From the IMG/VR virus record IMGVR_UViG_3300033179_000002, positions 1 to 64,000 of that record: a stretch of DNA of 64,000 bases; one strand, given 5' to 3'. The position numbers and the translations under genes were made by a program. Source of the DNA: a virus (lineage: Duplodnaviria; Caudoviricetes). This document shows, piece by piece, positions 59,224 through 61,302 of this stretch. Position 1 is the first letter of the stretch. Each line of letters opens with the position of its first letter. The notes under the pieces were generated by a model. The model saw only the letters and a program-made list of their open reading frames with translations, had not been told where the DNA came from and ran no database searches.

Positions 59224-59711
59224 TCATCGACCAGGCCGTCTACAACGCGATGGTCGAGCACATGCGGCAGGCCGCACCCCACGAGGGTTGCGGCCTGCTG
59301 GCCGGCCCGCGCAAGGTCGGCAACCCGGCGGCTTCCGAAACGGTGTGCGACTGGTGGATGCCGATGGTCAACGTCGCCGAATTCCCGCGGCTGCGCTACG
59401 AAATGGACGACGCCGAACTCCTCGCCGCCTGGCAGACCCTCGACGACGCCGGCCGCCGGCCGTGGATCGTCTGCCACTCCCACCCCTGCGGCGAGGCGGT
59501 CCCGTCGGTGCATGACGTCCGTCTCGCCGTCGACCGGACGCTGCGGCACGCCGTGGTCAGCCTCGCATCCAGCACGCCGGTGGTGACGCTGTGGGAGCTC
59601 AACCCGTTCGACCCGGCCCGGCCGATGCGCAAGGAGCCGTACCACGTCCGTGACCTGGGGTTTCGTACCACCGGAACCTCAGACTTGACACATGATGTGT
59701 CATCAGGCTAG
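59220..59711 (+). CDS. JAB/MPN+ (Mov34, M67) metalloprotease
   Basis: EGCGLLAG ... HSHP....PS..D JAMM motif. Confidence 0.9.
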   Translation: MIIDQAVYNAMVEHMRQAAPHEGCGLLAGPRKVGNPAASETVCDWWMPMVNVAEFPRLRYEMDDAELLAAWQTLDDAGRRPWIVCHSHPCGEAVPSVHDVRLAVDRTLRHAVVSLASSTPVVTLWELNPFDPARPMRKEPYHVRDLGFRTTGTSDLTHDVSSG

Positions 59712-59714
59712 TGT
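59685..59714 (+). promoter_or_regulatory. Operator-promoter 1 of the ncRNA cluster
   Basis: TTGACA-18-TAGTGT; palindrome 59686-59702. Confidence 0.8.
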
Positions 59715-59851
59715 TTGGTTTGTAAGGCAAGGCGGTTCGGGTCGCTGGGATAACGAAAGTGCCTCGGCTTCACAACGTTCGATGTTCACTGATGTCGATC
59801 TAAGGTGAATGATCCACCGAGTGATTCAGATCCGATCGGCGGCAAGGTGAA

Positions 59852-59906
59852 GCGTTCACGCAAGGCAACGGCCCGGACTGCAGCCGGACCGGTCGGATTG
59901 GCAACT
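59852..59906 (+). repeat. 55-nt structured repeat, copy 1 (copy 2 at 60746-60800)
   Basis: GCGTTC(A/C)CGCAAGGCAACGGCCCGGACTGCAGCCGGACCGGTCGGATTGGCAACT, one mismatch between copies. Confidence 0.9.
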
Positions 59907-60049
59907 CTGGTGATGCGGCATCCAGTGCCCCTCGGGGCGAGCGGTGCAAGACTGGTTCGATTCCAGTATCCGATGCGCAACGGTTGATTGAAAATTCCAT
60001 GATCCACATAGACGGGCGGCGCCGCGACTGGTCTCCGGCGTCGTCTAAC

Positions 60050-60121
60050 GCCCCTGTAGCTCAGCGGACAGAGCAACGCCCAACTGCGCGTTAGAGGCTG
60101 GTTCGAATCCAGCCGGGGGCA
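60050..60121 (+). ncRNA. tRNA-like RNA with non-canonical 8-nt anticodon loop
   Basis: Acceptor GCCCCTG/CGGGGGC, D-arm GCTC/GAGC, T-arm GCTGG-TTCGAAT-CCAGC; loop CCAACTGC lacks U33; no CCA end. Confidence 0.7.
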
Positions 60122-60216
60122 CGGTTCCAAGCGCAACGCAAGGTATGAGCCGAGCGGCTGACACCGCCTGGCAAGAGCCCTGACGAGCGCGACGGTTGCC
60201 CGGTGTCAGCCGGGCA

Positions 60217-60279
60217 GCGCGGTAGCTCAATGGCAGAGCTCCCGTAAGGGGAGATGCGGGTTCGAATCCCGTCCGTGCA
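60217..60279 (+). ncRNA. tRNA-like RNA with anticodon arm shortened to a GNRA hairpin
   Basis: GCGCGG/CCGTGC acceptor, canonical D- and T-arms, middle arm CCC-GTAA-GGG. Confidence 0.7.
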
Positions 60280-60387
60280 CGCAAAGTTCAGGGAATGTGG
60301 CGCATCCTGCCCGCGCGGCGGGGACCTGGACGAGAGAGAACGCGCTGCAGGAGGCATGAGGTCACACCGGTGCGGCCGACGGGCTGC

Positions 60388-60453
60388 GGGCATGTGGGGA
60401 CCGAAGGCGGCCCGACGGGGTACGGCTACCAGGTTCAAATCCTGGCATGTCAC
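60388..60453 (+). ncRNA. tRNA-like module (acceptor plus T-arm with G3:U70)
   Basis: GGGCATG/CATGTCA; CCAGG-TTCAAAT-CCTGG; non-canonical middle arms. Confidence 0.5.
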
Positions 60454-60698
60454 TGGGGGCCCGTACCGGCGACCCGAACCGCGACCACTGACATTTCCGG
60501 TGCAGCGCTCAACCCCCGAATGTCCACGGGGCCGACCGGGGGGAGGGGGCATCATGCGCAAGAACCGCGACTGGCAGTGGGACTGATCCCCCGGCCGTGA
60601 TACGGGGTGCCGCTGGGATGGGAGTCCCCACAGTCCGCTGGACCGATGAACATCGGCTGCCGGACCGGCATCCACCTTGGGTCTGTAGAACCTCAGAC

Positions 60699-60728
60699 TT
60701 GACACATGATGTGTCATCAGGCTAGTGT
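60699..60728 (+). promoter_or_regulatory. Operator-promoter 2 of the ncRNA cluster (duplicate of promoter 1)
   Basis: GAACCTCAGACTTGACACATGATGTGTCATCAGGCTAGTGTTT is shared with the copy at about 59674-59716. Confidence 0.85.
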
Positions 60729-60803
60729 TTCTCTCGTAAGGCAAGGCGTTCCCGCAAGGCAACGGCCCGGACTGCAGCCGGACCGGTCGGATTGGCAACT
60801 AAC

Positions 60804-60875
60804 GCCCCCGCGCACTGGTGTGCGACGCGAGCCCGTCAGGGCCGCGCCAGTACGGTTCGAATCCGGACGGTGGCA
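60804..60875 (+). ncRNA. Divergent tRNA-like RNA (paralog of 60050-60121)
   Basis: Same flanks (TAACGCCCC...ACGGTTCCA); CGG-TTCGAAT-CCG T-arm; middle arm ends in a GTCA tetraloop. Confidence 0.55.
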
Positions 60876-60986
60876 CGGTTCCAGGAACCCGAGTCGCGGG
60901 CACTGACCCTATACGCGCCGTCCTTCCGGCCGCCCGGAAGGATTCCTAGCCAGCGTTGTCCCGGCTGGCGCGCACACGGGGCATCT

Positions 60987-61059
60987 GGGTCTGTAGCTCA
61001 TCTGGTAGAGCGCCGCCTCGGCAGGGCGGAGGTATCCGGTTCGACTCCGGGCAGATCCA
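60987..61059 (+). tRNA. tRNA-Ala(GGC) with C33
   Basis: Full cloverleaf; G3:U70 and A73 alanine identity; anticodon loop TCGGCAG; CCA not encoded. Confidence 0.75.
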
Positions 61060-61151
61060 CAGCGCCTGTCACTGCGTGTCGGCCCGGCCGGACGGCTCCC
61101 GCGTTTCGCGGCATGGGAAGGGGCGACGGCCCCGAGTGGTGGCAGGTGTCT

Positions 61152-61267
61152 GCCGAGGTAGCTCAGGTGGCAGAGCAGCGCAGACCTTCGTGATGACGCG
61201 ATGCGTAAGCAGGACGGGCAGCGAAGTTAGGCGTAGGTCGCGGGTTCAACTCCCGCCCTCGGCACCA
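61152..61267 (+). ncRNA. tRNA with a 47-nt structured insert replacing the anticodon loop; encoded CCA
   Basis: GCCGAGG/CCTCGGC-A-CCA, canonical D-arm, AGGTC variable loop and T-arm; insert pairs CTTCG/CGAAG and ACGC/GCGT. Confidence 0.75.
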
Positions 61268-61272
61268 ACGAA

Positions 61273-61302
61273 ACGGCCCCCCGCGTTGCAGCGGGGGGCC
61301 GT
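61273..61302 (+). terminator. Terminator-like hairpin closing the ncRNA cluster
   Basis: ACGGCCCCCCGC/GCGGGGGGCCGT 12-bp stem. Confidence 0.65.

Follow-up and report, generated by a model that had tools for sequence, protein, structure and literature searches.

Many defence systems target tRNAs, and tRNAs encoded by phages counter them (PMC10264068, PMC11464382, PMC11555353). Canonical phage tRNA clusters include tRNAs in which changes in the anticodon loop allow escape from host nucleases (van den Berg et al., 2023, PMC10264068; for PARIS, PMC11464382; for the evasion of retrons, PMC11555353). YrlA is a tRNA-mimicking Y RNA of bacteria and of Ro60-encoding phages (Chen et al., 2014, PMC4201824). 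Its tRNA-like domain has been proposed to inhibit an anticodon nuclease by competition (PMC7790460).

Here, we analyzed a cluster of tRNA-shaped elements in an uncultured soil actinophage. The window comprises 64,000 nt of a record with a full length of 80,439 b. Seven modules, designated M1 to M7, lie between positions 59685 and 61302, and the features of the locus are as follows.

59220–59711, plus strand: JAB/MPN (desampylase-like) gene.
59685–59714, plus strand: promoter P1 (TTGACA, 18 nt, TAGTGT), predicted from consensus only.
59686–59702, plus strand: operator on P1, a 17-bp palindrome overlapping the promoter.
59722–59891, plus strand: leader of unit 1, which begins with GTAAGGCAA and ends in a conserved hairpin.
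59892–59975, plus strand: M1, with a 7-bp acceptor stem containing an invariant G1.U72, a closed extended hairpin replacing the anticodon arm, and a T arm.
60050–60121, plus strand: M2, a tRNA body whose anticodon loop, CCAACTGC, has 8 nt and no U33.
60155–60212, plus strand: H23, a long hairpin between M2 and M3.
60216–60280, plus strand: M3, a tRNA body in which a GTAA tetraloop on a 4-bp stem replaces the anticodon arm.
60352–60453, plus strand: M4, the weakest module, in which a four-way junction is combined with a T arm and an acceptor-like stem of 6 bp.
60609–60644, plus strand: conserved element of 36 nt just upstream of P2.
60699–60728, plus strand: promoter P2 with its operator, a duplicate of P1.
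60736–60803, plus strand: leader of unit 2, a leader copy that runs into the first ~16 nt of M1 and from there directly into M5.
60804–60875, plus strand: M5, whose D arm has a 5-bp stem and the loop TGGT; its central hairpin is closed, bulged and 8 bp long, with GTCA as the cap, and a T arm follows.
60987–61059, plus strand: M6, a tRNA-Ala(GGC) with G3:U70 and the 7-nt loop TCGGCAG, in which C33 stands for U33.
61152–61267, plus strand: M7, a tRNA body with an encoded ACCA end.
61273–61302, plus strand: putative terminator of unit 2, a G+C-rich 10-bp hairpin without a U tract.
61338–61366, plus strand: third operator-promoter, the predicted driver of the ORF at 61404–61922, which marks the end of the RNA cluster.

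A preliminary description of this DNA had reported about 1.6 kb without convincing ORFs and at least seven T-arm modules therein, and both observations were borne out. No convincing ORF was found in 59685–61302, and the GC3 signature typical of the genes of this genome was seen in no ORF within 59712–61316. ORFs overlapping the RNA region, such as that at 60254–60586, were rejected as genes because their third-position G+C content is low. All seven modules were recovered by a scan that required a 5-bp T stem, the loop TTCRANN and a 7-nt acceptor strand with a complementary counterpart, and both the T arm and the paired acceptor stem are present in each. The scan placed them at 59892–59974 (M1), 60050–60120 (M2), 60216–60279 (M3), 60352–60452 (M4), 60804–60874 (M5), 60987–61058 (M6) and 61152–61263 (M7, with ACCA immediately after it). 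The earlier position list gave the T-arm position for one of them (59951) and the module starts for the others; the same objects are named. The clustering is not due to chance: 7 of the 12 plus-strand GTTCRANYC motifs of the whole 80,439-b record fall within 59955–61244.

The modules resemble tRNAs to different degrees. Four of them scored above the 29-bit cut-off of the Rfam tRNA model RF00005, namely M6 (54.8 bits), M7 (49.2 bits), M2 (48.9 bits) and M3 (41.5 bits). M1 and M4 remained below this cut-off and gave weak tRNA-Sec-like Rfam matches (18.9 bits, E 1.5, for M4), and M5 had no tRNA-type match in Rfam. ARAGORN called M6 (Ala GGC) and M2 ('???', four-base 'aact') as the only tRNAs in the region. 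It found no tmRNA, and Rfam gave no tmRNA match there either. The elbow nucleotides, GG in the D loop and TTCRA in the T loop, are intact. By comparison, a canonical anticodon arm (5-bp stem, 7-nt loop, U33, purine 37) is present in none of the seven modules. M2 has its 8-nt loop, M3 the GTAA and M5 the GTCA loop, and M4 is without an anticodon-type arm. In M7, a structured insert of 49 nt by Infernal's count occupies the place where 9 nt are expected. The description of these arms as remodelled was thus confirmed, as was the view that the cluster contains a single decodable tRNA, M6 being alone in having a 7-nt loop, though with C33.

One might ask whether the aberrant loops belong to unusual decoders, with M2 reading a four-base or otherwise odd codon and M7 being a tRNA whose insert is removed or tolerated. 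In the related contig L023, the M2 orthologue has an identical 8-nt loop on a compensated stem, and the M7 orthologue (L024, 6484–6594) carries a 42-nt insert at the same place of the anticodon loop, with compensated flanking stems. However, the M2 loop lacks U33, its orthologues have a TTCG tetraloop (L032) or a 5-nt loop (L025), and the genome contains no +1 junction between coding frames at AGTT or GTTG. The M7 insert, at 42–49 nt, is far below the size of group I introns and matched no intron family at E up to 5, so that M7 was rejected as an intron-containing tRNA; moreover, no drawable excision restores a 5-bp stem with a 7-nt loop. M1, M3 and M5 are unable to decode under any reading. 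Unusual decoding is accordingly very improbable as an explanation of the cluster. The identity of the M2 loop in two phages nevertheless shows at least one anticodon-arm loop to be under sequence constraint. This counts against a pure body decoy, which would not need such a constraint.

To place the modules in a transcriptional context, we inspected their flanks. The operator-promoter TTGACACATGATGTGTCA occurs as exact copies at 59685 and 60699 and as a variant at 61338, which upholds the earlier notion of two duplicated operator-promoters. Together with its variants it is found at about a dozen sites in the window, compared to 0.01 expected. A generic promoter scan called the third site (61338–61366) only and neither P1 nor P2. 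The duplication takes in some 60 nt of the promoter region and some 63 nt of the leader, at 93–94% identity. Within the leader of unit 2, repeat D1 is 94% identical, and R1, the model of M1, scores 38.8 bits across the hybrid. M5 is 85–91% identical in L023 and L032, where it lies downstream of a complete M1. Its position here suggests that M5 gained its own promoter and leader copy, which would fit a need for expression. As to the terminator claimed earlier for the end of the cluster, the 10-bp G+C-rich hairpin at 61273–61302 is present, but a U tract is absent and a consensus terminator scan did not call the hairpin. Termination presumably takes place there.

P1 and its operator are encoded by the last codons of the upstream JAB gene (conserved ...DLTHDVS), the C-terminal residues of which are invariant across 17 homologues. 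The gene product matched Pfam Prok-JAB with 5.4e-16 and the NCBIfam desampylase model with 1.8e-17, the latter below the cut-off of that model. The P1/operator arrangement at the 3' end of the JAB gene is kept in L022, L023, L024 and L032. For the two conserved genes located 5' of the JAB gene, no match was found in Pfam, NCBIfam or PDB sequences.

Relatives were identified by a metagenome scan and with a 17-nt DNA pattern. Seven related metagenomic phage contigs contain tRNA-like clusters, which directly follow the JAB gene in six of them. The JAB gene precedes the cluster in L022–L026, L031 and L032; L033 has M1 and no JAB match. In these clusters, mimics are mixed with canonical tRNA-Lys, tRNA-Trp, tRNA-Met and tRNA-Gln. 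M1 is always the first module and heads the cluster in all six related contigs that have it; the R1 model gave 82–118 bits in 7 phages, with a single copy in each. No orthologue of M4 was detected. In IMG/VR, searches with single flanking proteins and with a JAB alignment gave no matches. The 17-mer matched 65 times in genome contigs, which equals the chance expectation, and none of these matches had a T loop. When the region was compared by BLAST with 50,697 phages of GenBank, both near and distant, the Ala tRNA alone gave a match, to one mycobacteriophage tRNA, and M1 was absent from the same phages. A search of 113 small genomes from a single actinobacterial class, probably outside the host group, gave one weak match to R1 and did not point to a host. 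A JAB homologue also occurs in Streptomyces phage Dryad, without a tRNA-like element after it.

The alignments of orthologues clearly revealed compensated conservation of the stems. For M1, 94% of the cells were paired across 7 phages, and 12 of 24 pairs were changed on both sides. The pairing dropped to 34–44% when the partner strand was slid. The M2-H23-M3 block was 91.7% paired in 4 phages, with 18 of 48 pairs changed on both sides. Shuffling reached the observed values in 0 of 500 trials for M1 and in 0 of 500 for the block, counts that overstate the significance since they derive from small sets of 4–7 related sequences. The four M3 orthologues, in which 4 of 6 acceptor pairs and 3 of 4 D-stem pairs are compensated, are 100% paired and differ in their loops (GTAA, GGTAA, 7-nt or 6-nt); positions 1 and 72 of M3 are mismatched. 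In M5, the hairpin pairs are compensated and the cap sequences differ (three caps). The M6 orthologue in L032 has kept both the loop and G3:U70, with compensated pairs in the acceptor, D and T stems. M6 is the only module with an anticodon conserved among orthologues; the loops of M2, M3 and M5 vary in length and sequence. The anticodon arm varies freely between lineages, from tetraloops over loops of 5, 6, 7 or 8 nt to long closed hairpins.

These data bear on the possibility that the modules are decaying tRNA pseudogenes left from a former tRNA cluster, for which canonical tRNAs next to uncompensated changes in the relatives had been named beforehand as the signature. Canonical tRNAs do occur in the same cluster of the relatives, and M4 is without an orthologue. 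Yet the stem changes are compensated and 92–100% of the pairing is preserved, although the flanking protein is only 35–60% identical among the phages concerned, and the promoters have been maintained and even duplicated. We regard decay as hardly credible, the least probable of all explanations considered. The tRNA body seems to be under selection while the anticodon arm changes from lineage to lineage, as the preliminary description had proposed.

The conservation is not uniform within the modules. In the M1 and M2-H23-M3 sets, the top acceptor pairs and the discriminator base are invariant and the lower acceptor pairs covary, a pattern that is expected if a protein reads the acceptor end. 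The D arm of M1, consisting of a 3-bp stem and an invariant 10-nt loop, is invariant over 17 nt. This suggests that M1 has a sequence-specific partner rather than being a generic mimic.

Conserved structure is also found between the modules. The leader hairpin at 59869–59891, in which 5 of 9 pairs are changed on both sides in 7 phages, abuts M1. In H23, 6 of 12 outer pairs are changed on both sides, and its two 12-nt arms have been fully exchanged between the source phage and L023. The 36-nt element is 89% identical to positions 5716–5751 of L024. Furthermore, a UUGA(C/A)AACUG motif recurs just before modules. The tRNA shapes could then be processing or stability scaffolds, i.e., RNase P/Z punctuation and stable ends, with the leader, H23 and the 36-nt element as the effectors. 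The conserved and structured spacers, the recurring motif and the constant first place of M1 agree with such an arrangement. However, punctuation needs neither six different bodies nor invariant acceptor tops and discriminators, and the modules can be aligned between relatives, in contrast to most spacers. Scaffolding is therefore unlikely, even if it is the least unlikely of the alternatives.

A tRNA body with a conserved acceptor end might likewise serve as an amino-acid carrier outside translation, charged by an anticodon-independent synthetase and donating to a non-ribosomal acceptor. The invariant acceptor tops and discriminators and the CCA encoded in M7 are in line with this, and G3:U70 in M6 demonstrates that the phage has kept an AlaRS identity element. 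But none of the mimics has G3:U70 or another recognisable anticodon-independent identity set. A Pfam census of about 89 ORFs also revealed no transferase (Fem/MprF/L-F type), cyclodipeptide synthase or synthetase. A carrier function appears improbable to us. The same census gave no RtcB, RNA ligase, CCA-adding enzyme or Pth, and no tRNA-related enzyme that could act as a partner protein. Searching all 80,439 b for a PTH2-like gene (PF01981) gave no match at E up to 1; the gene upstream of the cluster encodes the JAB peptidase.

We further considered Ro60, for which no gene had been seen in the window. This absence extends to the whole 80,439-b record, in which no Ro60/TROVE match was obtained. 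With the YrlA model RF02553 (cut-off 69 bits), the best match of the whole record reached 14.6 bits (E 0.16), and the RNA region had no match at E up to 5. In addition, the modules have the normal order of acceptor 5' strand, D arm, central arm, T arm and acceptor 3' strand, with open ends and without permutation. The suggested kinship with YrlA does not hold at the level of family membership, but the lead retains some value in the neighbourhood of G001, an 85-kb phage and the closest relative that is complete. Right behind its version of the cluster, G001 encodes two YrlA-like RNAs (37.6 and 35.3 bits, below the 69-bit cut-off) and a TROVE gene (71 bits). L026 has a YrlA-like match of 30.6 bits, also below the cut-off. 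On this basis, and given that YrlA is a known tRNA mimic (PMC4201824), the modules might be substrates or cofactors of Ro60-type surveillance, with Ro60 supplied by the phage in the relatives and by the host here. Against this, G003 (98% complete) and G004, like the source phage, have neither a TROVE gene nor a YrlA match, the modules are unpermuted and lack a Ro-binding stem, and the matches of the relatives stay below the cut-off. Dedicated Ro60 partners are as improbable as amino-acid carriers.

The explanation we favour, with a confidence slightly short of even, is a regulated phage RNA operon that encodes one decoding tRNA and six non-decoding mimics occupying proteins that recognise the tRNA body. 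Judged from its layout, the operon would have been split into two units through duplication of the promoter and leader. A Streptomyces-type promoter, overlaid by the 17-bp operator of the phage itself, would open each unit. Host tRNA-processing enzymes could then cut the presumed transcripts into single RNAs, with RNase P acting at the 5' ends and a 3' nuclease and the CCA-adding enzyme at the 3' ends, except for M7 with its encoded CCA. The mimics would retain the top view of a tRNA, comprising the acceptor stem with its invariant upper part, the discriminator base and the D-loop/T-loop elbow, with the anticodon arm sealed, shortened or expanded. Through protein binding they could divert, as competing decoys, the tRNA-targeting nucleases of defence systems or toxins, or else RNA-surveillance factors of the Ro60 type. 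Decoys against tRNA-targeting defences are the most likely of these roles; it counts against them that they would have to reach a high copy number relative to host tRNA. M6 may supply tRNA-Ala, and its altered loop may resist an anticodon nuclease.

More tentatively, this decoy reading may extend to a whole clade of soil actinophages, in which operator-controlled arrays of mimics would titrate tRNA-targeting nucleases and toxins or Ro60-type surveillance. Intact acceptor ends and elbows would be presented to immune nucleases or toxins, sequence-altered real tRNAs of the same operon would replace cleaved ones, and M1 would serve one specific protein of the host or the phage as its dedicated ligand. 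Such a family is well suited for testing, as it offers a defined promoter and operator, clear covariation of the modules and natural variants of the anticodon arm.

Compared with YrlA, the modules are likewise non-coding RNAs that reproduce the acceptor, T and D part of a tRNA without a working anticodon, and YrlA also occurs in actinobacteria and their phages. In YrlA, however, a Ro60-binding stem surrounds the tRNA-like domain, which is circularly permuted and has a closed acceptor end, whereas the phage modules form an array of different types with free acceptor ends and score far below the YrlA model. The family links free-standing tRNA mimics with the Ro60/YrlA neighbourhood. The tRNA-like domain of tmRNA is another acceptor/T-arm mimic without an anticodon that is recognised by tRNA enzymes, but tmRNA bears the Ala identity G3:U70 and comprises pseudoknots as well as a reading frame resembling that of an mRNA. 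Closer in form are unannotated or 'tRNA-OTHER' genes of cultured actinophages, found in Streptomyces phage Yara (MH019215, 42258–42323 and 43058–43141) and Microbacterium phage Clock (PQ559672, gene 38). Their tRNA bodies score above the Rfam cut-off, and the anticodon arm is either shortened or expanded. Rather than forming an operator-controlled array, each lies singly among protein genes, and BLAST revealed no sequence homology to M1–M7. Some of the tRNA-like genes that are 'undetermined' or left unannotated in phage genomes would be accounted for by mimics of the present kind.

Canonical phage tRNA clusters share with this locus the clustered and, here by prediction, co-transcribed tRNA-shaped genes, and M6 is a genuine tRNA-Ala whose loop is altered (C33). 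They differ in that six of the seven members here are without a usable anticodon loop. Thus, the replacement of cleaved host tRNAs cannot be the role of these six. tRNAs have recently emerged as a main battlefield of bacteria and phages, and phages are known to respond with replacement tRNAs and with repair enzymes. Non-decoding tRNA bodies arranged in an array would be a different answer, made of RNA decoys or ligands for tRNA-binding proteins.

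A module scan, which required a TTCRANN loop closed by a 5-bp stem, then a 7-nt strand with its complement 40-200 nt upstream, recovered seven tRNA-shaped modules (M1-M7) behind a peptidase gene:

59220-59711, JAB/MPN peptidase gene, directly upstream of the cluster
59892-59974, M1; central arm a closed, extended hairpin
60050-60120, M2; central arm with the 8-nt loop CCAACTGC
60216-60279, M3; central arm of four pairs and a GTAA tetraloop
60352-60452, M4
60804-60874, M5; central arm an 8-bp bulged hairpin with a GTCA cap
60987-61058, M6; otherwise proper tRNA-Ala with G3:U70 and the loop TCGGCAG
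61152-61263, M7, followed by an encoded ACCA; central arm with a structured insert of 49 nt

The preliminary description had likewise reported at least seven T-arm modules in ~1.6 kb without convincing ORFs, and no ORF with the genome's third-position G+C bias lies between 59712 and 61316. Its central arms agree with ours for the M2 loop, the M3 and M5 tetraloops and the M7 insert. The whole record has 12 GTTCRANYC motifs on the plus strand, and seven of them lie in the 1.3-kb module region. M6, M7, M2 and M3 scored above the cut-off of the Rfam tRNA model, and ARAGORN accepted just two modules, M6 as tRNA-Ala (GGC) and M2 with a four-base 'anticodon'.

An unlikely reading is that the modules are odd decoders, with M2 reading four bases. 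No coding-frame +1 junction at AGTT or GTTG was found in the genome, and there is therefore no genomic demand for such reading by M2. M6 has C at position 33, which in tRNAs is nearly always U33. The orthologues in related phages differ as follows:

Central arms of M2, M3 and M5 in the window and in three related loci
M2: window, 8-nt loop; L023, identical 8-nt loop on a compensated stem; L032, TTCG tetraloop; L025, 5-nt loop
M3: window, GTAA; L023, 7-nt loop on a 4-bp stem, without U33; L032, 6-nt loop; L025, GGTAA
M5: window, GTCA cap; L023, CCTG cap; L032, CCGG cap; L025, not found

The M5 caps stand on a hairpin with compensated pairs, and the central arm of M1 ranges across phages from a 6-bp tetraloop hairpin (L024) to branched inserts of 45 nt. 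Since the central arm varies from orthologue to orthologue and the loop is kept in M6 only, selection acts on the tRNA body and not on decoding.

Covariation was analyzed in alignments of module orthologues. In A2 (M1 plus leader hairpin, seven phages), 94% of the cells were paired, with both-sided changes in 12 of 24 pairs; in A3 (M2, the intervening hairpin H23 and M3, four phages), 91.7% were paired, with both-sided changes in 18 of 48 pairs. None of 500 shuffles reached the observed values in either alignment, counts that are not probabilities because the alignment sets are small and the sequences related. Moving the 3' partner in A2 by one to three columns gave 34-44% pairing, and such slid controls, together with the many two-sided changes, are a stronger argument than the shuffle counts. 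M3 alone showed compensation in four of six acceptor pairs and three of four D pairs, with all cells paired, and between the window and L023, H23 has its two 12-nt arms swapped. M5 (A6) and M6/M7 (A7) followed the same pattern with fewer sequences. Invariant in M1 are the D arm over 17 nt, the G1.U72 pair and the discriminator G. If the modules were pseudogenes, random, uncompensated decay set against normal tRNAs in relatives would be expected; the stems in A2 and A3 are instead compensated. These stems and the lineage-specific central arms support the earlier proposal that the tRNA body was kept by selection while decoding was lost. We consider it very likely that the modules are selected, non-decoding tRNA-shaped RNAs.

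The sequence TTGACACATGATGTGTCA, a -35 box fused to a 17-bp palindrome, occurs with its variants at about a dozen sites in the window versus 0.01 expected. Exact copies lie at 59685 (P1, heading unit 1) and 60699 (P2, heading unit 2), each with TAGTGT 18 nt further on, a sequence that fits TAGRRT, the -10 consensus of Streptomyces housekeeping promoters. The next ORF has a third copy, at 61338, as its predicted promoter. The two operator-promoters had been described as duplicated; the duplicated stretches span about 60 nucleotides of promoter and 63 of leader at 93-94% identity, and in the second leader copy the first ~16 nt of M1 are joined directly to M5. As for the proposed closing terminator, the hairpin is present (61273-61302) and may serve this role, but a U tract is absent and the terminator scan made no call. 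The conserved JAB C-terminus (...DLTHDVS) is encoded by the promoter/operator sequence: in the stretch 59674-59714, these last seven codons (D, L, T and V invariant) double as -35 box and operator, one DNA stretch under protein and regulatory-site constraint across 17 JAB homologues (P0001-P0017). Between M4 and P2, a ten-codon ORF (60555-60587, MRKNRDWQWD) follows a strong ribosome-binding-like run, GGGGGAGGGGG, maybe by chance.

The window covers the first 64 kb of an IMG/VR virus record (80,439 b, high G+C, estimated completeness 96%). The record derives from an uncultured soil actinophage that probably infects Streptomyces or a near relative, because the major capsid protein shares 47% identity with those of Zuko and KimJongPhill, both Streptomyces phages, and 39% with the Yara group. 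For the cluster region, BLAST against GenBank phages returned only a tRNA-Ala match. Six metagenomic loci were retrieved with the alignment of JAB homologues and four real IMG/VR loci with the invariant 17-nt piece of M1, GGCAACTCTGGTGATGC; other matches to this 17-mer were due to chance (low G+C, no T loop). All loci that extend downstream of JAB have a cluster of tRNA-like genes there, in the order conserved 246-aa protein, variable ORF, JAB, cluster. The closest relative, L032, is part of G001 (85,079 b, terminal repeats, 100% complete) and holds M1, M5, tRNA-Met, M2, H23, M3, more tRNA-likes and an Ala tRNA. Because M5 follows a complete M1 in L023 and L032, the two-unit layout of the window is derived, M5 having gained its own promoter.

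In L031, M1 and other mimics have canonical tRNAs (Lys-UUU, Lys-CUU, Trp and Met) as neighbours; anticodon nucleases and the VapC/MazF toxins of actinobacteria often target these tRNA species. Another tRNA-like gene occurs in both L031 (2924-2993) and L032 (7426-7494, minus strand); its loop is CTACAAA (anticodon ACA, unmodifiable-looking A34), its D arm is non-canonical, and its acceptor stem and 3' trailer are M2-like. A small Gly/Ser/Arg-rich ORF (~63 aa) that has a good ribosome-binding site lies inside the cluster of three relatives (L032 7983-8173, minus strand; L033 9271-9455; L023 640-842; clear homology between L032 and L033) and is absent from the window. The motif GGTTNGTTGA(C/A)AACTG recurs 10-30 nt ahead of tRNA-like modules and ahead of a YrlA-like RNA (window 59976-60000; L023 505-530; L024 5565-5595; L026 6425-6445; L032 8490-8465 and ~6500) and may act as an internal -35 box or as a leader signal at the RNA level.

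The sequences show the shapes, their conservation and the free central arm; that P1 and P2 drive transcription, that the host tRNA machinery processes the products and that any protein binds them, we infer. An identical trailer, A-CGGTTCCA, stands behind M2 (60121-60140) and M5 (60875-60890); as it is kept behind M2 in four phages, it suggests a shared 3'-processing signal. Among the less probable readings, the modules could be scaffolds for processing conserved spacers. They could also be non-ribosomal amino-acid carriers, for which the ACCA behind M7 may be considered. The Pfam census of ~89 ORFs (Prim-Pol, SSB, glycosyl- and methyltransferases, portal, capsid, HTH protein, JAB peptidase) contains no RNA ligase, RtcB, CCA-adding enzyme, Pth or synthetase, and PTH2 is absent from the whole 80,439-b record. 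One ORF, within 41292-64000 or in the record beyond the window, matches PF07737 (ATLF, metalloprotease-type domain; 8.5e-09). For the selected tRNA-shaped RNAs, we tentatively propose that they occupy tRNA-recognising proteins: acceptor end and elbow would engage such proteins, and the mimics would most likely compete for tRNA-targeting nucleases or toxins. [quoted passage not shown]

A further alternative is that the modules are partners of Ro60. Directly behind the cluster of G001 come another promoter, two YrlA-like RNAs with a permuted tRNA-like domain (scores of 37.6 and 35.3 bits; cut-off 69 bits) and a TROVE gene (71 bits); the coordinates for this arrangement are L032 6224-6462 (minus strand) and G001:6127-6354. 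L026 has a weaker YrlA-like match. No TROVE gene was found in G003 (98% complete) or G004, and the Ro60/TROVE gene, previously noted as lacking in the window, is absent from the whole record. At the corresponding place (61404-62214), the window has ORFs of unknown function unrelated to these genes. The YrlA model scored at best 14.6 bits in this phage.

Full-text literature, with most subscription journals outside its scope, yielded no description of free-standing anticodon-less phage tRNA mimics, which does not prove that none is in print. The nearest described RNA is YrlA, yet the modules fail each YrlA-defining feature. Nearest among undescribed RNAs are single 'tRNA-OTHER' or unannotated tRNA-like genes of cultured actinophages, two in Streptomyces phage Yara (MH019215; locus L019 1759-1824 and 2559-2642, minus strand; unannotated) and one in Microbacterium phage Clock (locus L113 694-763; 'tRNA-OTHER'). 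These score above the Rfam cut-off, have a 4-nt or expanded central loop, and would be tractable models.
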